Shown here piece by piece: positions 15,244-41,324 of a DNA stretch of 64,000 bases; within the stretch, counting starts at the first letter, position 1, and each line of letters begins with the position of its first letter. Location of the stretch: positions 27,259 to 91,258 of the forward strand of contig JAYUQG010000024.1 in assembly GCA_043756865.1 (NCBI GenBank), read 5' to 3'. This DNA comes from a bacterium. GTDB lineage: Bacteria > Patescibacteriota > Minisyncoccia > Phycocordibacterales > UBA6899. Position numbers and translations under genes: made by a program. The notes beneath the pieces are model-generated. The model made no database searches, had not been told where the DNA came from, and worked only from the letters and a program-made list of their open reading frames with translations.

Positions 15244-15268
15244 AAACCGCGATTTTTCGCGGTTTTTT
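15244..15268 (+). terminator. rho-independent terminator after the Mqo-like gene
   Basis: AAACCGCGA-tttt-TCGCGGTTT followed by TTTTT. A second, minus-strand terminator AACCAC-ctgt-GTGGTT lies at 15281-15306 and serves the cassette gene that ends at 15343. Confidence 0.6.
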
Positions 15269-15342
15269 ATAATTCTCAATATAAAAACAACCACCTGTGT
15301 GGTTGTTGGTTTTCCCGTCGCTAAAGAGGGGATAAAAGAAAC

Positions 15343-15564
15343 TCAGGAGCCGCGTGGGCGTTCGGTGACACGCACCTTGGCTCCCTCGGAGAGGACGGTG
15401 TCGGCGGTTGCCGGCTGTCCGTCGACGGTAACGTTCAGGCTCTTCAGGTCGAGCTTCAGGTGTGCTGCAGCCGCGCCGAGGGTGGTTGTGGGGGGCACTT
15501 CGACGTTTTTGCCGCGCTCTTTCTTGTCACTATTCAGTGGAACTTTTGTCAGGTGAATTTGCAT
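15343..15564 (-). CDS. ubiquitin-like beta-grasp protein (ThiS/MoaD-like), C-terminus RPRGS
   Basis: About 73 aa starting MQIHL, with the ThiS/MoaD pattern ...LNVTVDGQPATADTVLSEGAKVRVTERPRGS. It ends Arg-Gly-Ser rather than Gly-Gly. A GGAG ribosome-binding site precedes it. Its ATG lies 1 nt after the upstream gene's TGA. Confidence 0.6.
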   Translation of the reverse strand: MQIHLTKVPLNSDKKERGKNVEVPPTTTLGAAAAHLKLDLKSLNVTVDGQPATADTVLSEGAKVRVTERPRGS

Positions 15565-15565
15565 T

Positions 15566-16225
15566 TCAATCTCCAGTGGTTGGGTAGATGGTGATTTCTC
15601 CGCCGCACAGCCTTTCAACGTGCCAGTCTTTTCTACCACGCTTCCAAAAACTTCTCAATATGTATGCAGCTTCTGCAGCTACAACAGTCGAGACGTCGAT
15701 GATGCTATGGAGTCCGCACATTTGGGGGGCAGCTTCCGGGGTCGAGTAACTTAGGTAGTGTTCGTAATACGCGATCTCCTTTGTGTTGCAGGGTGAGATG
15801 GAAAAGACTTGCCAGAATTCCTCGGCGACACGCGTATCGATAAGTACATCGATGAGCGGATTTTTTTTCACCTTCTGCCAGATGAGCTGGCGTGCCTCCA
15901 TGGTATCGACGCAGGCAATAACTGTACGCTTCAAGGGTTCACCTTCGTAGCGTCTGCGCTGCACATTGAGTGAAATGCCCGTGTCGCGTAGGATGATTGC
16001 AGCGAGTGCGTCTACTTTGTAGAGCCCGAAGTCTCCTTCTCCGTAGAGTGACGGTGCGATGTTGTGTGACTCGACACTGTCGTGGTCGTAGACCGTGATA
16101 TCCGTAACACCCATACGTACGAGCATCGAAACGACATGACTTCCGACGGAACCCGCGCCGATGACGGTGACGGGCTTGATATCTTCATCAGGAAGGTAGT
16201 ACTTCTGCTGAGAGAGATTTAACAT
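15566..16225 (-). CDS. E1-like adenylyltransferase, ThiF/MoeB/HesA family (minimal, about 220 aa)
   Basis: VTVIGAGSVGSHVVSMLVRMGVTDITVYDHDSVESHNI is the E1 GxGxxG nucleotide-binding fold plus the D..D...SNL motif. Start taken at 16225 (MLNLSQQ), whose ATG overlaps the upstream stop (GTATGTTAA). Confidence 0.7.
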   Translation of the reverse strand: MLNLSQQKYYLPDEDIKPVTVIGAGSVGSHVVSMLVRMGVTDITVYDHDSVESHNIAPSLYGEGDFGLYKVDALAAIILRDTGISLNVQRRRYEGEPLKRTVIACVDTMEARQLIWQKVKKNPLIDVLIDTRVAEEFWQVFSISPCNTKEIAYYEHYLSYSTPEAAPQMCGLHSIIDVSTVVAAEAAYILRSFWKRGRKDWHVERLCGGEITIYPTTGD

Positions 16226-17670
16226 ACGACTGCCTCCGCGGTTTGTTCCATTTGGACTGTTGGCCATTCTTCGATTTTGTTGTAGAGGATGAGCTCGGGC
16301 GTGTAGCCCTCGGTCAGCCACCGCAAGATGTACTCGATGGCATCTGCATATCGATACTCCGCAACTGCTTCAGTGATGGGGTCGCCAACGTTTCCAAAGC
16401 AGTGTCCTGCCCACGGACTGATGTGTGGATGGGGAACTCCTTTTGGGTGGAATGCCTCTTCGCACCAGATGGTGATATGTGGGTCAATGCCCAAGCAAAT
16501 ACCAAACGTACCAATCTTGTACGTCACTCCACCATCGAGGATGGTGATGAGTTTTGTTTTCACCTCAAACCCGTAGTTGGGAATAATGATGGCACGAGCA
16601 ACGAGCGGGTGTAGCAAAATTGCTTCTGTATCTGCAACCAGATTATCCATCAGTGTTTGCTGATAGTGGACGTCTCCAAATAGGACTTTGTGCGTTTTGT
16701 GTTGCACCACAAGGTTGCGACGTTGTGCCAACAAATCTTCCTGTAGCTTAGCGATCGTTGTGACCGTCTTGGCAATCCGTGCTTCATGTGCGGTTACTTG
16801 AAGTTTTAGGAAGGCCGCACACTCGGTTTGCAGTGTTTGGCTCGAAAACGGTATCTCTATAGCGACTGCCTCATTGCCGTCGAGCCAAAATTGTAGCCCA
16901 AGGACAACAGCTTTGCTGAAGAGTTTGAGCAAGGTCGCGTCGCCGAGCTCCCACATGAGATACGGATTGTGCAGTATGTAGATGTTGTTTCCGATTACCT
17001 GCACAACGTCGTGGTCTCCGTCGGTGAGTGCGACGCCACGTCTTGGGGCACTTTTTAGCTGCGGCCAAACGAGACCTTTCGCTTCGACACTTAGCCCGAA
17101 GAGCGTATCCGGATGCGTCATCTGCGGGATGCCTGAAGGCAACGTATAGATAAACACATGGAGTTCGTCATCTTTGCACCGAATCGGTTCGTAAAAACCG
17201 GAGGGTGAAGGGTCGTGGAGAGTGAATCCGATACCGCCGACTACTTCCGCCATGATGCGAAGGTATTCGACAAAGATTGGCTGGAGCATGTGTTGCGAAC
17301 GGTCGAGCTTTTCGTCCGAGCGTGTTCCCGGTACAGGTGGCGCCATCACTGAAGTTCCCGGCTTGATGCAGATGAAGTCGAAGACGGTACCGCCAACACG
17401 ACACTCCAGTCCCTCACCGGGAGTAACAAGTTCTTCCACAACGTGTTTGATATACGGATGCGAGAAGAGCACTACTGGCAATGTCAGCTCTTCAGTGCCG
17501 ATCTGCACTGTCGCAGTAAAAATTTCGGTGCTTTGTACTGCGTCGAGCATTGTCAGTTCTGCTCGATGTACCGCGTGAGCAGCAAAAATCGGTCCTTCAA
17601 AGAGTGCAGTCGCCTGAGCAAGTTCATGGGCAGTGACATGCTTCTTTTGTGGTGTGAGATCAGGGGACAT
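16219..17670 (-). CDS. uncharacterised 483-aa protein co-operonic with E1-like and Ubl genes
   Basis: Long ORF with good composition. C-terminal region contains GTFGICLGI (E2-like GxICL context) and PHPHISP, and the protein ends ...AVVC. No confident domain assignment. Confidence 0.5.
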   Translation of the reverse strand: MSPDLTPQKKHVTAHELAQATALFEGPIFAAHAVHRAELTMLDAVQSTEIFTATVQIGTEELTLPVVLFSHPYIKHVVEELVTPGEGLECRVGGTVFDFICIKPGTSVMAPPVPGTRSDEKLDRSQHMLQPIFVEYLRIMAEVVGGIGFTLHDPSPSGFYEPIRCKDDELHVFIYTLPSGIPQMTHPDTLFGLSVEAKGLVWPQLKSAPRRGVALTDGDHDVVQVIGNNIYILHNPYLMWELGDATLLKLFSKAVVLGLQFWLDGNEAVAIEIPFSSQTLQTECAAFLKLQVTAHEARIAKTVTTIAKLQEDLLAQRRNLVVQHKTHKVLFGDVHYQQTLMDNLVADTEAILLHPLVARAIIIPNYGFEVKTKLITILDGGVTYKIGTFGICLGIDPHITIWCEEAFHPKGVPHPHISPWAGHCFGNVGDPITEAVAEYRYADAIEYILRWLTEGYTPELILYNKIEEWPTVQMEQTAEAVVC

Positions 17671-17780
17671 TTGTTTCCTTTCCTATCAATGATCAATGTC
17701 TGAGACTAGTTCAACAAGAAAATTGAGAAAAAGTCAATTTGCACCGCAGAACAGCTGTTGCGCGTGTTATAATTTTATTT

Positions 17781-18974
17781 ATGGATTTGCAACACAAAGA
17801 CTTCCGTACATTGTTCCAGACACTTGTCATGTTTATTTCGCTTGTGACATACCCGCATACTGCATTTGCGGTACTTCCTCCAGATATTTTGTTTTCTGTG
17901 GGAGCCAGCCTCTGGCAAATTCTCGCCATGGTGGGTGTATTTGTGACTGGAGCAGCGATGTCGGTGCTGCCATTTCTCAAGGGTGTGTTTACGGGGGATC
18001 GTAACTGGAGGGTCATTTCGCTCTGCGTGGGACTCACATTGCTTGCGGGTACAGGACTGCTCGCATTTCTCTCAAGGCCCAATGCGACCCCCACACCACA
18101 GCCGTCTGTGTCCACTGGAACTTCTGCATCCCTGGGATATCGTTTCTTCGCTGATCGGTTTGTTATACACGGAACGCGTAAGGATGGTACCCCTCTTCTG
18201 GTTGATTTGGTGATCAATAGAAAAGAGGCCACTCCAGGAGTATTTGCACACTACTATATGGCGCAAATTATTGATGGCGAAGCAACCGCAAAAGACTATT
18301 TTACTAGGGATGCTGCATCGCATGAGGTCCTTCCCGACCTCCTTTTCACGCGATTTGTGCGACATGCTACGTCGAGTGAACCTTCACGCGAGTGGCAGGG
18401 GTTCTCATTTTACATGCTCGGGAAGCAATATGCGGTAAGCTCGGGCCCCATGGACGGGGATTTTGTGGTGCGTAACGTTCCTGAATACAGTGAGTATTCG
18501 AGTGCGGGGTCTGGAATCGTATCCGAGGAGGGGGAGCAGGTTCCTGTTTCTATTTATCACGAACGTGTTTACTCTACTGACTATCGTCCACTTATCTTCT
18601 TTGAAGGCTCCGTAACACTCCGTTCAGAGACCGTGCAACTCGTACTATGGGATGCACTTGGAAACTTTTATCTTATTGACCGCTCGCTCGTCCCCGAGCC
18701 TTCCCCTGTTTATGCTTCTCATTTTTGGGCGTTATACAAAGACACAATGGGATATGTCAAAAAGGGATTTGTGGGTGAGGCATCAATGCAGCGCGACGGA
18801 GAAACAGTTAAATTCTTTAGCACGGTCCCTGCATTTGCAGATGCGCAGGTTGGGGTGACGCTCAAAACAAAGTTTAAGGATGATTTCGACAAAGGGTACG
18901 TTGAAGGTCAGATTGCTGACAGCGCAGGAGTGCGAAAAATTTCTGGGCAAGGCTACTTTAATATCTATGAATAA
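17781..18974 (+). CDS. hypothetical membrane-anchored protein
   Basis: N-terminal TM helices, then a roughly 300-aa soluble domain. The ORF-track start at 17739 is TTG, and the first ATG is 17781. The 3' end overlaps the start of the next gene by 8 nt. Confidence 0.45.
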   Translation: MDLQHKDFRTLFQTLVMFISLVTYPHTAFAVLPPDILFSVGASLWQILAMVGVFVTGAAMSVLPFLKGVFTGDRNWRVISLCVGLTLLAGTGLLAFLSRPNATPTPQPSVSTGTSASLGYRFFADRFVIHGTRKDGTPLLVDLVINRKEATPGVFAHYYMAQIIDGEATAKDYFTRDAASHEVLPDLLFTRFVRHATSSEPSREWQGFSFYMLGKQYAVSSGPMDGDFVVRNVPEYSEYSSAGSGIVSEEGEQVPVSIYHERVYSTDYRPLIFFEGSVTLRSETVQLVLWDALGNFYLIDRSLVPEPSPVYASHFWALYKDTMGYVKKGFVGEASMQRDGETVKFFSTVPAFADAQVGVTLKTKFKDDFDKGYVEGQIADSAGVRKISGQGYFNIYE

Positions 18975-21054
18975 TAATATACCCACGGATTTCCTTGTCA
19001 GTGCTCTGAATACTATTGGGAAAGAAAAGGAGTTTGGAGGAAAGACCATACGTCTTGCAGAACTGATACGTGAGGGGTATGCAGTGCCTACTTTTTTTGC
19101 AATTTCCGCGCCATTGGTTTTCCGCATGAAGGAGGAATTTAAAATTGATACTTATACAGTAGTGACGCAAATAGCTCACGAAGTGACCGTGCGTATCCCT
19201 GCGACACATTATGCGGTTCGTTCAAGCGCGCTTGCAGAGGACGGTGGCAACTCATCACATGCAGGAGAGTTTCTGACGTGCCTTAATGTTCCACCCGAAG
19301 GCGTTGCACAAGCAATCGCTGATGTGTTCCGTGATGCAATGCATAAAGGTTACGTCACCGCCGCACTCCCATTTTCAATAATTATTCAGGAATTTCAGGA
19401 ACCCGAGTTGGCTGGGGTACTATTCACGCGGCACCCGAGCGGTGAACGTGAGATGCTTCTTGAATGGACAAAGGGTAGGGGGGAGCAGGTTGTCTCAGGT
19501 CGTGGTGGAAAACGTTTGTCTTTTTTACGCGGCTCTCCGCCCTCCGCACTACCTCCAGCAGCGCGCCCGCTTGTGGATGTTGGCATTGCCATTGAATCAC
19601 TTTATAACTTTCCTCAGGATATCGAATGGGCAGTATCGGGCGGAAGACTGTTCTTGCTCCAAACTCGTCCTATCACCACGATTACTGGAGAGCGGTATGC
19701 GGGTATACTCAAGGCAGACGAAGTGGCGATGGGTTACCCAAAGGAATATTATTATGCGCGCGGTACACTGGCTGAGTCGTTTTCACGACCGCCTATCCTC
19801 GCTCGTTCCTTGCTGGAATACGTCTATCGTGCTTCCGGTCCTGTTGAACGCGCGTATCGCAAGCTTGGGGTGCATCCTGCATCAGCAGTGAGTTTTGTGA
19901 CGCTTTGTGGGGCATACTACATCGACCGAGAGTCGGAACTGAGGCAGTTTTATCCGACGCACAGCTATTTTGGCGGCACGCTACTGCGCCCGCATGTGGT
20001 GACACTCTCTGGGCTCTTTCGCACAATGCAAAATACGCGCGCACTCGCGCAACTTCCAAGAAAAAATATTGATACATATAAAGCAGAATTTACTGCAATT
20101 ACACATGAATGGTCTGAACTGGCAGACACAAGTGCCACATGGGAAGAGCATCTTTTGTTTCTCGACGCGTGGTACGAGCAAATATTTTTGGTCAACGTGG
20201 AGACCGAGGCGGCCATGCATAAACTGCGTGGTGCACTGCGTGGCTCGCCACACGCACTGGCAAATGTTATTGGCGCAACACTAGAGAACGTTGCCACACA
20301 TGCTCCACGCACCGCATTGCTTGGGGGAGTAAAAGCGCACATGAAGGGAAACTCGTTGAACATTGCTGATATGAGCGTATTTCAACACAAGCCTCCTGTA
20401 GCTACTCACTCGAACTTGGCGATACGTGATTGGTACAATGCGCTACCTTCGTCCCATCGTTCGCGTTTTGCACAAGCACTAGGAGAGTACCGTGCATATG
20501 AAGCACTCCGTGAGGAGGGGAGGTGGCTTACTGTCTTGCTCATGTCTGGACTACGGGACGCACTTATGCAGCGTAGTGCAGCATCAGGAATTCCAAATGA
20601 ACTTTGCTTTTTTCTCACACTCGACGAACTTCGGAGCGGGGATTGTGCAGTCGAAAAACTCAGGTCACGGTTTCAGGAACAAAGAGCATCTGACTTACTT
20701 GATTTTCCAGACGTTATTGCAAGCATTCCACGAGAGCGAAGCGAAGAAATCTATGGAGTTTCCGCAGGGGTGGCAACGGGCACACTTTCCTCATCTCGGA
20801 CAAACAAGGAAAAAGACACAATACTATTGGTAGATCATCTCGACCCGGAATTAGTCAGACATTTCCCGCACATAGCAGGAATCATCGCACGAGAAGGAGG
20901 AATACTCTCGCATCTTGCAATCATCGCTCGCGAATATGGAATCCCTGTTGTTGTCGATAGGCGCAGCGGTTCTTCATATCGGAGCGGAGACCACGTGCGG
21001 ATAGACGGAGGAAGTGGAACTATTGAGGTATCTGTAGCCCAGGAGAAGACATAA
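18967..21054 (+). CDS. PEP-utilizing enzyme family protein (PPDK-type N-terminal ATP-grasp plus C-terminal phosphohistidine swivel domain; PEP synthase / rifampicin-phosphotransferase-like)
   Basis: AVRSSALAEDGGNSSHAGEFLTCLNV matches the PPDK_N (pyruvate phosphate dikinase PEP/pyruvate-binding N-domain) motif. C-terminal GGILSHLAIIAREYGIPVVV matches the PEP-utilizers mobile His domain. No C-terminal PEP/pyruvate TIM-barrel. Confidence 0.65.
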   Translation: MNNNIPTDFLVSALNTIGKEKEFGGKTIRLAELIREGYAVPTFFAISAPLVFRMKEEFKIDTYTVVTQIAHEVTVRIPATHYAVRSSALAEDGGNSSHAGEFLTCLNVPPEGVAQAIADVFRDAMHKGYVTAALPFSIIIQEFQEPELAGVLFTRHPSGEREMLLEWTKGRGEQVVSGRGGKRLSFLRGSPPSALPPAARPLVDVGIAIESLYNFPQDIEWAVSGGRLFLLQTRPITTITGERYAGILKADEVAMGYPKEYYYARGTLAESFSRPPILARSLLEYVYRASGPVERAYRKLGVHPASAVSFVTLCGAYYIDRESELRQFYPTHSYFGGTLLRPHVVTLSGLFRTMQNTRALAQLPRKNIDTYKAEFTAITHEWSELADTSATWEEHLLFLDAWYEQIFLVNVETEAAMHKLRGALRGSPHALANVIGATLENVATHAPRTALLGGVKAHMKGNSLNIADMSVFQHKPPVATHSNLAIRDWYNALPSSHRSRFAQALGEYRAYEALREEGRWLTVLLMSGLRDALMQRSAASGIPNELCFFLTLDELRSGDCAVEKLRSRFQEQRASDLLDFPDVIASIPRERSEEIYGVSAGVATGTLSSSRTNKEKDTILLVDHLDPELVRHFPHIAGIIAREGGILSHLAIIAREYGIPVVVDRRSGSSYRSGDHVRIDGGSGTIEVSVAQEKT

Positions 21055-26158: not shown

Positions 26159-27193
26159 TCACGACTTCACGCCGCGAATGGGTTTCATGCCCGAGGTGCT
26201 GCGACCAAACGCGGCAACTCGGATACGTTGGAATTCTTCGGTGATGTTTCTCTTGTTCCAGTTCGGACGTCTCATGACGTCGCGCACGATGAGCGAGCGT
26301 ATGAAGTCGCACATGGCGTCGGGTACTGTTGATGGTACTTCTTTGCGCACCACGGTCTCAATGCCGCCCCCCAAAAGAAACAGCATGGTCATGCCGAGAC
26401 TGTAGAAGTCGGTCTCGGGAATGAGCGGTTTTCCTTGAAGCTGTTCTTGCGGAGAAAAATGCTCGGTATATCCATCGGCTTGCGTGTCTCGGTCCGGCTT
26501 CACTTGCGAGAGTCCGAAGTCGACGAGACAAACGGTGTGGTCTGTCTCCTGCACGATGATGTTCTGCGGCTTGATGTCGCCGTGCACCACTCCGTTGTAG
26601 TGCAGATAGTGCAGTGCATTCAAGAGCCGCTCCGTAATCCATGCAACTGATTCTGCATCGAGTCGCCCTTTTTCTTCAACGATGTCGAAGAGATTTTTGC
26701 CCGGAATGTAGCTCATCACGAGAAAGTAGCGACCGTCGTCGGTGCGCACCAGCTCGCGTACTGCGGGGAGTGCAAAGTGTCGCAAGTCCCACAGCAGTTT
26801 TGTCTCACGCAAGAGGATAGCTTGAATATTCGCCTCGGGCCATGCGCAGTCTTTGATGCAGACAGGCAGTCCCGTGACAACATGTTCTGCAAGATAGGTT
26901 CTTCCAAACCCGCCTGCGGCAATCTTGCTTTTCACGCGATAAGCTCCCACGAGCTTGCCGCTGACACCTTCGCCTCGACGATACTTGTCGTATTGTTGAC
27001 GCAGTGCGTCGTCCCCAATCACGTTATAGGCCTCGTTGATCTCCTGTGACGTCCGCACGGTGCTTCCGTGGTCAGGATGCTTCAGGCTCATGAGTGCTTT
27101 CCACGCCGCTTTTATCACGGCAGGGTCGGCGGTCGGATGAACCTGAAGCCGCGCATAGAGGTCATGCTCGAACGCGGATAGTACTGGCTTCAT
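26159..27193 (-). CDS. J-domain (DnaJ-like) fused to Ser/Thr protein kinase
   Basis: N-terminal DLYARLQVHPTADPAVIKAAWKALMSLKHPDHG...EINEAYNVIGDDALRQQYD is a J-domain with its HPD motif. The kinase domain has AAGGFGRTY (Gly loop), VCIK, HGDIKPQNI (catalytic loop) and DFGLS. Confidence 0.7.
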   Translation of the reverse strand: MKPVLSAFEHDLYARLQVHPTADPAVIKAAWKALMSLKHPDHGSTVRTSQEINEAYNVIGDDALRQQYDKYRRGEGVSGKLVGAYRVKSKIAAGGFGRTYLAEHVVTGLPVCIKDCAWPEANIQAILLRETKLLWDLRHFALPAVRELVRTDDGRYFLVMSYIPGKNLFDIVEEKGRLDAESVAWITERLLNALHYLHYNGVVHGDIKPQNIIVQETDHTVCLVDFGLSQVKPDRDTQADGYTEHFSPQEQLQGKPLIPETDFYSLGMTMLFLLGGGIETVVRKEVPSTVPDAMCDFIRSLIVRDVMRRPNWNKRNITEEFQRIRVAAFGRSTSGMKPIRGVKS

Positions 27194-27389
27194 GCGATAT
27201 GTCTCCTTTCATAAAACTGAATTAATGTTCTCCTGTCCAAAATCTACAATATTTTTTACAAAAGTAAATGGGCCAGGTGAGCCTTGCTCACCTGGCCCAC
27301 GCTTGTGCTTAATCCATTTTTTTGTTCCGACTTCATTCATTTTTTAGCGGAAACAAGGTACTCTGGAATCAGAGCGCAAAGGAGCAGGT

Positions 27390-40418: not shown

Positions 40419-40844
40419 ATGACACGTACTAATGTTGTTTCATTCCTCCCGTTCATGGTGACAATCGACGTGCGCGTCGAGCTTGCGCTTATGACCATGA
40501 ATACGACGTTGTGTTTCGGCCCATTCAATACACAAGAAAGTGCCGATAGTTGGTCGGGTGAGGTGCACCGTTTGCACAAAGACGTCGAGCGTCGTGAAGA
40601 TACTATTGCAGATAGTGTTAGCGACGAGCTCGGCATTCCTACTGCGGAGTTTATTCGTGCATATGTGACCCTCCCCGATTCGTTCCAAGTGGGCAAAGAT
40701 GCGCGAGAAGATGGAAACCTCATTCCGACGCACGCACCTGAGATTGATGCGCGAGATATGCGTATCTATGCGCTCCGCGCATTCGCATCAGCGGTCGACT
40801 ACACTTTGGAGCGACTCATCCAGACACCGCCCCTGCATTCATAG
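40419..40844 (+). CDS. hypothetical protein
   Basis: AAAGGAG ribosome-binding site 7 nt upstream of the ATG at 40419. Terminator CCGAGG-acaca-CCTCGG plus T6 at 40847-40870. Confidence 0.45.
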   Translation: MTRTNVVSFLPFMVTIDVRVELALMTMNTTLCFGPFNTQESADSWSGEVHRLHKDVERREDTIADSVSDELGIPTAEFIRAYVTLPDSFQVGKDAREDGNLIPTHAPEIDARDMRIYALRAFASAVDYTLERLIQTPPLHS

Positions 40845-40965
40845 AACCGAGGACACACCTCGGTTTTTTGTTGCTCAGAATGTATTTATTCATTATGATA
40901 ACTGCACAATTTCCCCCCGTAGCTGTCTTGGTAGGTATCGGGCGCTAGTAAGGAGTTGTTTATTT

Positions 40966-41038
40966 CCACCCGTAGCTCAGTTGGTAGAGCGGTCGTCTTA
41001 TACACGACTGGTCCCTGGTTCGAGTCCAGGCGGGTGGA
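40966..41038 (+). tRNA. tRNA-Ile with anticodon UAU (decodes AUA)
   Basis: Cloverleaf: acceptor CCACCCG/CGGGTGG, D-arm GCTC-AGTTGGTA-GAGC, anticodon arm GTCGT-CTTATAC-ACGAC (positions 34-36 are TAT), T-arm CCTGG-TTCGAGT-CCAGG, discriminator A, 73 nt. No encoded CCA. Confidence 0.75.
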
Positions 41039-41324
41039 CAAGCGAGACTCACAATGTAGAACACTGTGCGCTTGTCCAAGCCACAGCCATATCGAGGCTT
41101 GGCGAGATGGCGAGGCGGTGTGAGGCTCGGTCAAGGGAACCCAGCTTTGTGGGAACCGAGCCGCAAGACTCATTGAGAACTTTTGTCATCAAAAGATCCA
41201 ATGAGTGGACAGCTCCTGTAAGGAGGCGAACATTTCAGAAAAATTGACTTTTTGTGTCTTTCATGTTATTAAGGATATAGATGGGTAATGTCGCCCACCT
41301 CTCTGCAATGAAAGCGAGTTTGAC

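Follow-up and report, generated by a model that had tools for sequence, protein, structure and literature searches.

How can a ubiquitin-like protein be activated if it is made with a serine at its C-terminus? To our knowledge, a free C-terminal Gly is treated as a near-universal requirement of the ubiquitin-like proteins (Ubls) that are activated by E1 enzymes, and the only natural exception that we know to have been characterised so far in bacterial cascades is the Ala of some Cap2 substrates. The question is raised by a 64,000-nucleotide stretch of DNA (the window) from a bacterium of the Patescibacteriota, corresponding to positions 27,259 to 91,258 of contig JAYUQG010000024.1. An open reading frame (ORF) at 15343..15564 on the minus strand of the window encodes a Ubl of 73 residues that ends in Arg-Gly-Ser. 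A first examination of the DNA (to be referred to as the sequence-only reading) had concluded that either the Ser is trimmed or the chemistry differs. The second option is now the better supported one, as the Ser is conserved above the Gly and the length of the tail is constant.

This ORF encodes the presumed modifier in a self-contained cassette of three genes, which are transcribed from the E2-like protein through the E1 to the Ubl. The sequence of the Ubl has an invariant Gly-Ser end with a free Ser carboxylate, and the protein is probably synthesised in its final form. We propose that the E1 adenylates this carboxylate directly, and that the Ubl would be relayed via Cys170 of the E1 and Cys424 of the E2-like protein to its targets. 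Judged from sequence comparisons, this mechanism has a probability of roughly 55%.

The C-terminus of the ubiquitin-like protein

The translation of the minus strand at 15343-15564 is MQIHLTKVPLNSDKKERGKNVEVPPTTTLGAAAAHLKLDLKSLNVTVDGQPATADTVLSEGAKVRVTERPRGS (73 codons), followed by TGA. Reading the strand codon by codon confirms the Arg-Gly-Ser-TGA ending that had been noticed earlier. The tail, E68-R69-P70-R71-G72-S73-stop, occupies 15343..15363 (−), with Gly72 at 15349-15351, Ser73 at 15346-15348 and the stop codon at 15343-15345, and it is encoded by GAA CGC CCA CGC GGC TCC TGA (the window's own contig is locus L023 in the comparisons below). The gene is the last one of the operon. Its ATG is separated by one base from the E1 stop codon, and a GGAG ribosome-binding site is located 8 nucleotides (nt) 5′ of the ATG. 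An intrinsic terminator at 15286..15307 (−), 36 nt past the Ubl stop, closes the operon. A second, bidirectional hairpin is found near it, at 15244-15265.

The gene, defined by the ORF and its translation, encodes a β-grasp protein similar to ThiS and SAMP2. The window Ubl by itself gives sub-threshold Pfam matches only. Among 19 members of the family, matches were found to SAMP2 (11/19), ThiS (8/19), DUF348 (8/19), Ub-Mut7C (7/19) and TGS (3/19), which upholds the earlier description of the protein as ubiquitin-like. The Ubl profile was also compared with a profile of ubiquitin and NEDD8 (sequences entered by hand), with the aim of fixing the register of the tail, and no significant match was found.

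Related loci were collected by means of the 483-residue E2-like protein of the cassette, not by means of the Ubl, from public assemblies, JGI metagenomes (19 loci) and GTDB genomes (8 loci). The small gene is complete in 21 distinct related loci. It ends in E-R-P-x-G-S-stop in all 21 of them, and this ending persists down to an identity of only 27% between the E2-like protein of a locus and that of the window. In an alignment of 19 Ubl sequences (A3), with a mean column identity of 45%, the only invariant columns are Met1 and the E, R, P, G and S of the tail. The Ser is encoded by TCC, TCG, TCA or AGC in the different loci, which covers both codon families, and the stop codon is TGA or TAA, indicating that the residue is selected at the protein level. 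The sequence-only reading had allowed for the orthologues to end uniformly in Gly-Gly; they end uniformly in Gly-Ser.

A word-seeded search of 5.8 billion proteins, which is biased towards the motif, gave relatives in 73 clusters, and all 73 end in ERPxGS. A tail-blind profile (A6), consisting of the Ubl body minus its last six residues, was then used in an exhaustive search of 1.84 billion representatives. The residues of the tail were counted over the best 150 matches to this profile, 104 of which are single-domain members of the family. The last residue of these 104 proteins is Ser in 101, Ala in two and Gly in one. Position −1 is occupied by Gly in 96, Ser in four, Ala in two, and Asn and Asp in one each. 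Further upstream, position −3 is mostly Pro (73, with 17 Ala and 11 Val), position −4 is Arg in 87 and Lys in 11, and position −5 is Glu in 99. The final Ser is retained in the six members that have Ser, Asn or Asp in place of the Gly, while the Ser itself is replaced only by Ala or Gly. Two of these six, with Ubls ending in RSS (L034) and QNS (L035), are located in cassettes in which the E1 motifs (see below) are intact. Moreover, all 146 motif-bearing proteins that were collected stop exactly at the Ser, with nothing beyond it. The Gly-Ser ending is far beyond chance.

The Ubl family comprises at least 100 clusters at 50% identity. A Ubl from the wider group, ending in TEKPRGS (L037), sits in the same E2-like/E1/Ubl cassette, and another one, ending in TEKVRGS (P0133), is located directly 3′ of a ThiF gene encoding 214 residues.

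An internal control is provided by the tandem poly-Ubl proteins that were also retrieved in the A6 search. The tails of these proteins past their Gly are ragged, with N, NK, NA, NQ, NDK, NVSK, NHKETV, G, GK, A, AKA or no residue at all. They probably correspond to the 6E/Bub polyUbl class of Iyer et al. 2006 (PMC1779556), the operons of which encode peptidases (10.1101/2024.11.21.623953). The poly-Ubl matches (P0093, P0104, P0116, P0117, P0137, P0153, P0211 and others) contain 2-8 tandem β-grasp units, each ending in ..K-G-N, and many of them terminate exactly at the Asn. Three other proteins, of 600-740 residues (P0138, P0173 and P0188), have FtsA/PilM/MreB-like actin-fold ATPase domains followed by C-terminal ThiS/TGS-like β-grasp domains.

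Two further features were observed in and around the Ubl genes. Many Ubls of the family (P0036, P0040-P0044, P0047, P0053 and others) carry a Lys-rich N-terminal extension (for example MARKKSGSGKKKSGS...), which the window Ubl does not have. The lysines of this extension could be acceptors for chain formation, or could serve as a nucleic-acid or membrane anchor. In addition, a pyrimidine-rich GTTCTTTC-like motif is present 0-20 nt past the Ubl stop, before the terminator hairpin, in about half of the distinct loci and in several clades (L002, L003, L004, L012, L015, L016, L019, L024, L027 and L028). The version in the window is GTTTCTTTT, at 15334-15342 (−).

The E1 and E2-like partners in the cassette

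The arrangement E2-like protein, E1, small ORF is found in all of the related loci (about 30), with the genes overlapping or abutting each other. All-versus-all clustering of the ORFs from 32 loci finds the cassette trio as the only clusters common to the set, apart from antisense shadow ORFs. A hairpin followed by a T-run is located 40-70 nt past the Ubl stop in nearly all of them.

The E1 gene, at 15566..16225 (−), encodes a minimal ThiF-family protein of 219 residues (Pfam ThiF, E = 4.2e-17), and its homologues are called at 214-223 residues. The true start is the ATG at 16225. The overlap of this ATG with the stop of the 483-residue gene is 7 nt long (ATGTTAA), and a GGAGG site precedes it. 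The family keeps the GxGxxG motif, the ribose Asp, Lys70, Asp107..Arg112 and Cys170. The N-terminal segment with the Arg finger and the C-terminal CxxC (Zn) module are both absent. Cys170 (15716..15718, −), the presumed thioester-forming residue, is invariant in 21 E1s and in alignment A8, and it aligns at the position of Cys187 of MoeB and Cys184 of ThiF (MoeB and ThiF sequences entered by hand).

The adenylation site of this E1 has been remodelled. In place of the canonical S-N-L-x-R-Q, the protein has S53-H54-N55-I-A-P-S59 (16049..16069, −), and the Arg is thereby lost. The HMMER alignment to the solved E1s sets 'veshniaps' against 'vensnlnrq', and the form S53-H54-N55-[IV]-x-x-S59 is invariant in the family. 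Two more motifs are invariant and specific to the family, D130-T131-R132 (15830..15838, −) and C170-G171-x-H173 (15707-15718, −), the latter containing the presumed thioester-forming Cys.

The three motifs, S-H-N, D-T-R and C-G-x-H, are all intact in 24 E1s that are paired with Ser-ending Ubls. In the cassette with a Ubl ending in ..KGA (L032), the E1 has SQN, DVR and CGxD instead. In the one with a Ubl ending in ..QAG (L033), the E1 has DVR, and the S-H-N region is off the contig. Such co-variation would be expected of a Ubl with its last residue in the active site of the E1. With two informative loci and no phylogenetic correction, it may be taken as a lead, not as proof.

The E1 profile is roughly equidistant from UBA5, ThiF, MccB, TcdA, Cap2, PaaA, MoeB and BubCD, and a specific affinity to Cap2 is consequently unsupported. 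This comparison places the protein at the periphery of the E1-like superfamily, rather than among derivatives of Cap2. The PADLOC 'E1-E2' and NCBIfam 6A-MBL cap2 models match only its Rossmann segment, with 54 bits against a cut-off of 320.

The first gene of the cassette, at 16219..17670 (−), encodes a protein of 483 residues, with an N-terminal domain without assigned function, a long coiled coil (residues ~277-352) and a C-terminal E2-like domain. No match to it was found in Pfam, NCBIfam, PADLOC or the PDB sequences, other than coiled-coil noise. There are 18 homologues among the 5.8 billion proteins, with 21-77% identity. In the C-terminal part of the protein, the residues that are invariant among them are His408, Gly411, His414-Pro415-His416, Cys424, Gly426, Trp451, Leu452, Tyr456, Glu467, Trp469 and Pro470. 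In the N-terminal domain, only Pro178, Arg211 and Gln224 are invariant, and Gly212, Asp217 and Tyr231 are nearly so. No invariant Cys, Ser or His is found there, and a peptidase hidden in this domain was rejected for that reason. The likeness of the full-length model to glutamine amidotransferases in a Foldseek search is weak and not significant, and it was not retained.

The E2-like (UBC-like) domain covers residues ~335-470 (16261..16668, −). Structures were predicted as AlphaFold2 monomers and compared with the PDB and BFVD using Foldseek. The mean confidence (predicted local distance difference test, pLDDT) is 80.9 for the full-length model and 81.4 for residues 330-483, with a predicted template modelling (TM) score of 0.76 for the latter. 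The modelled C-terminal domain consists of a helix, a β-meander, a loop carrying HPH and the Cys, and two helices, which is the order of the UBC fold. The top matches of the isolated domain are UbcH8, UbcH7, UBE2S, a Plasmodium E2, Ubc9 and an RWD domain, with TM-scores of 0.44-0.50 over ~135 columns and E values of 0.09 or above. An annotated E2 from a giant virus is among the best matches in BFVD. A profile-profile comparison by hhalign with five eukaryotic E2s (sequences entered by hand) gives a probability of 66% and an E value of 5.6e-5 over 79 columns, and places HPH on the HPN motif and Cys424 on the catalytic Cys. The protein has no Pfam UQ_con or Prok-E2 match.

The motif His414-Pro415-His416-x7-Cys424 (HPHISPWAGHC, 16399..16431, −; Cys424 at 16399-16401) is probably the HPN-Cys signature of E2 (UBC) enzymes, with Cys424 as the presumed catalytic residue. 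The sequence-only reading had missed this signature; it had correctly stated that the stretch does not fit a JAMM motif, and a JAMM reading is rejected here on the match to the E2 HPN..Cys. With the E2 signature, the cassette would be an E2-like/E1/Ubl conjugation set, not a sulfur-carrier pair.

Proposed activation at the serine and its alternatives

In the proposed mechanism, the minimal ThiF-type E1 would bind the β-grasp body of the Ubl together with the E-R-P-x-G-S tail, and would adenylate the α-carboxylate of Ser73 with no prior trimming. The acyl group would then be passed to Cys170 in the C-G-x-H motif of the E1, and from there to Cys424 in the HPH-x7-C motif of the E2-like domain. 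The final transfer would be to an amine of the target, presumably a lysine, and the target would probably be chosen by the N-terminal domain (with the coiled coil) of the 483-residue protein. His54, Thr131 and His173 of the E1, which replace or add to the canonical residues of the adenylation site, are proposed to accommodate and read the Ser side chain.

The better conservation of the Ser relative to the Gly, the constant length of the tail and the lack of a linked peptidase together speak against the Ser being a disposable cap. Its replacement by the small residues Ala and Gly only is the spectrum expected at an activated terminus, as documented for the substrates of Cap2. These naturally end in Gly or Ala, providing a precedent for a terminus other than Gly (PMC10097602). 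ThiF-like enzymes in the pathways of RiPPs (ribosomally synthesised peptides that are modified post-translationally) also adenylate C-termini other than Gly, for example the C-terminal Asn of MccA (PMC12250964). As there is no peptidase in the system, the Ubl would need no maturation, and there may be no dedicated enzyme to undo its conjugation.

Several points weigh against direct activation of the Ser. In Cap2, the one relative that was tested, a terminal Gly-to-Ser change abolished both thioester formation and conjugation (PMC10097602). Both of the Arg residues that canonically hold the ATP phosphates, in the N-terminal Arg finger and in SNLxRQ, are lost from the E1, which leaves ordinary adenylation uncertain. 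Three weak-to-moderate lines support the assignment of the 483-residue protein as an E2, none of them individually significant in the fold search. The peptidase screen of this genome covered the 64-kb window. In one further cassette (L036), the Ubl ends in ..SAA while the E1 retains all three motifs, with an apparent frameshift at the junction of the E1 and Ubl genes. Finally, the case for the Ser draws on the logic of conservation and on co-variation with only two informative non-Ser cassettes, which may share ancestry.

The strongest alternative is that the Ser is a one-residue pro-sequence. An unlinked peptidase would expose Gly72, and the Ubl would then undergo canonical adenylation and conjugation, as do Atg8, UFM1, QbsE and the BubAB protein after its cleavage by BubCD. 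E1 substrates end in Gly as a rule, and synthesis with a tail is common among Ubls. Gly72, too, is highly conserved (96/104), the Gly-to-Ser change is lethal to Cap2 chemistry (PMC10097602), and BubCD cuts BubAB after a conserved Gly (10.1101/2024.11.21.623953). The search for a peptidase, however, does not favour this explanation. The clustering of the ORFs from 32 loci finds no conserved protease or peptidase gene, including JAB/JAMM, which extends to about 30 loci the earlier statement that the cassette has no JAB/JAMM gene. No JAMM motif is present in the substantial ORFs of the window.

In favour of trimming, a Peptidase_C39_2 protein, of the double-glycine peptidase family, is encoded 2-3 kb from the cassette in one syntenic subclade (L010, at 251-1162, and also L017, L018 and L020). 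It has an N-terminal membrane anchor. A separate and unrelated C39 gene is found in L002 (5767-6288), and there is no C39-type peptidase near the cassette at the other loci. A conserved neighbouring protease was rejected on this distribution. Moreover, the Ser outlasts the Gly in the family, including the cassettes L034 and L035 with their intact E1 motifs, the tail is constant at one residue, unlike the ragged tails of the poly-Ubl proteins, and residues of the E1 co-vary with the identity of the last residue. Trimming is possible, if rather unlikely.

Another explanation is that the hydroxyl of the Ser takes part in the chemistry, either by an N-to-O acyl shift of the Gly-Ser bond, as in pyruvoyl enzymes or intein serinolysis, or by cyclisation of the adenylated or thioesterified Ser to a β-lactone or oxazolone, giving a different activated species or a linkage other than a plain isopeptide. 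Gly-Ser is a classical self-cleavage site. The near-absolute preference for Ser over Ala and Gly (101/104) would be accounted for, as would the invariant His54, Thr131 and His173 around the E1 site, and altered chemistry is also hinted at by the absence of both Arg residues that bind phosphate. Cyclisation with the help of a side chain, following adenylation of the E1 type, is known for MccB and other ThiF-like adenylyltransferases (TLATs; PMC12250964). On the other hand, no datum points specifically to such a reaction, and the conserved Cys residues of the E1 and the E2-like domain suit an ordinary thioester relay. The natural Ala and Gly endings in the otherwise intact cassettes L032 and L033 indicate that the hydroxyl is not indispensable. 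This explanation is improbable. If it were true, the activated intermediate or the linkage would be of a type not known for any ubiquitin-like system. If the linkage instead resists Gly-specific deconjugating enzymes, the missing peptidase of the cassette would be explained.

Still more doubtful is the idea that no protein is conjugated, such that the Ubl is a sulfur carrier or a RiPP-like substrate for modification at its C-terminus, and the 483-residue protein is a scaffold or a metal binder (three His and a Cys). ThiS, MoaD and SAMP2 are the families nearest to the Ubl, and the E1 is as near to ThiF, MccB and TcdA as to the E1s of conjugation. In Foldseek, the likeness to E2s falls short of statistical significance, and His408, His414, His416 and Cys424 could in principle bind zinc. 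However, the clustering across the loci finds no ThiG, MoaE, rhodanese or other sulfur-transfer or cofactor gene conserved with the cassette. The profile-profile match places HPH on HPN and the Cys on the catalytic Cys, with the secondary-structure order of a UBC domain, and E2 enzymes dominate the top fold matches. A folded β-grasp protein of 70-100 residues would also be atypical as a RiPP precursor.

An artefact of sequencing, assembly or gene calling at the Ser codon, or a recoded TGA hiding a longer protein, can be dismissed, since the ending recurs in over 100 independent sequences that come from different assemblies, the Ser and the stop are written with four and two different codons, respectively, and the sequence downstream is not conserved as protein and is followed by a terminator.

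Known systems, distribution and significance

The cassette resembles the bacterial E1-E2-Ubl cascades (Bil, Cap2 of CBASS, and Bub), yet it departs from defining features of each. Bil (BilA, Ubl; BilB, E2; BilC, JAB; BilD, E1) likewise has separate genes in an operon, implied Cys-based E1 and E2 enzymes and a sporadic distribution. In comparison, the cassette has no gene for a JAB or other deubiquitinase, its Ubl ends in Ser while that of Bil ends in Gly, and its E2-like domain is the C-terminus of a 483-residue protein with an extra N-terminal domain and a coiled-coil region. Neither the Ubl nor the 483-residue protein is matched by a PADLOC or Pfam model for such systems.

For type II CBASS, the gene order of E2 followed by E1, with the 7-nt overlap, mimics the E2-E1 fusion of Cap2. 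The E2-like protein and the E1 are nevertheless encoded by separate genes in the cassette, there is no CD-NTase and no Cap3 (a JAB peptidase), and the substrate is a dedicated β-grasp Ubl. Moreover, the Cap2 that was tested does not tolerate a terminal Ser (PMC10097602), with which the Ubl of the cassette ends.

Poly-Ubl proteins of the Bub/6E type are the nearest other β-grasp matches of the Ubl profile, and Bub is likewise a diverged bacterial conjugation system with unusual chemistry. It is based on oxyesters, with a catalytic Ser/Tyr in place of Cys, whereas a Cys is invariant in both enzymes of the cassette. Bub has the serine protease BubE (DUF6527), and sometimes a JAB protein, neither of which is present here; no DUF6527 match was found among the neighbours that were scanned. 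The terminal Gly of the Bub Ubl is exposed by cleavage (10.1101/2024.11.21.623953), in contrast to the fixed Gly-Ser of the cassette.

The β-grasp fold is common to the cassette Ubl and to ThiS, MoaD and SAMP, and their ThiF, MoeB and UbaA partners correspond to the ThiF-family E1 with its Cys at the position of ThiF Cys184 and MoeB Cys187. The differences are that the cassette Ubl ends in Gly-Ser instead of Gly-Gly, that it has an E2-like partner, and that sulfur-transfer and cofactor genes are absent. Relative to ThiF and MoeB, the E1 has neither the Arg finger nor the Arg of SNLxRQ, and no CxxC (Zn) module at its C-terminus. The ThiF-like adenylyltransferases of RiPP pathways (MccB, PaaA, GrcB and EnfB) adenylate C-termini other than Gly, and two of them, MccB and PaaA, count among the closest relatives of the E1 with a solved structure. 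These enzymes act on short peptides with an RRE 'peptide clamp' and without an E2, and produce nucleotide adducts or macrocycles, while the cassette has a Ubl and an E2-like partner.

Finally, the precursors Atg8-Arg, UFM1-Ser-Cys and QbsE-Cys-Phe have one or two residues past the reactive Gly, comparable to the single residue past Gly72 in the cassette Ubl. Their tails vary between species and are removed by Atg4, UfSP and QbsD, respectively. The single Ser of the cassette Ubl is better conserved than its Gly, and no protease is linked to it. In the literature that was searched, which is incomplete, neither a Ser-ending Ubl nor a Ubl system in Patescibacteria was found to be described.

The occurrence of the cassette is sporadic, and the named carriers are mostly of the candidate phyla radiation (CPR)/Patescibacteria type, uncultured bacteria with ultra-small cells. 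They are metagenome-assembled genomes of Candidatus Lloydbacteria (five), Magasanikbacteria, Uhrbacteria and Parcubacteria, with a few binned elsewhere. No relatives of the cassette were found in IMG/VR, and a phage origin was rejected on this basis. A role in defence or stress tagging may be hinted at by the sporadic distribution and the unconserved neighbourhoods.

The surroundings of the cassette in the window are ordinary, with nadA, nadC, an Mqo-like oxidoreductase, a NUDIX protein, a TrmB-type regulator and an enzyme utilising phosphoenolpyruvate (PEP). The PEP-utilising enzyme (PPDK_N and mobile domain, 18880-21054, +) is close to the cassette, and a PEP synthase is found two genes away from the cassette in a distant locus (L038, 1-1021); the link between the two may be a coincidence. 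A 411-residue ORF that is divergent from the cassette (17739-18974, +) has no family match, and is conserved only in the closest relatives (L001 and L023). Further away in the window, a protein of 344 residues (26159-27193, −) has a DnaJ domain at its N-terminus and, in addition, a Ser/Thr protein kinase domain. A tRNA-Ile with the anticodon TAT (UAU) was predicted by ARAGORN at 40966-41039 (+), inside the span of a mechanical ORF of 182 residues (40699-41247).

With Ser as the best-conserved residue of the modifier, a remodelled adenylation site in the E1 and no peptidase, the cassette would widen the rules of chemistry and specificity for E1 and E2 enzymes. It could provide an orthogonal, Ser-specific E1/Ubl pair for protein engineering, and it would extend the biology of CPR/Patescibacteria by a minimal tagging system of three genes.

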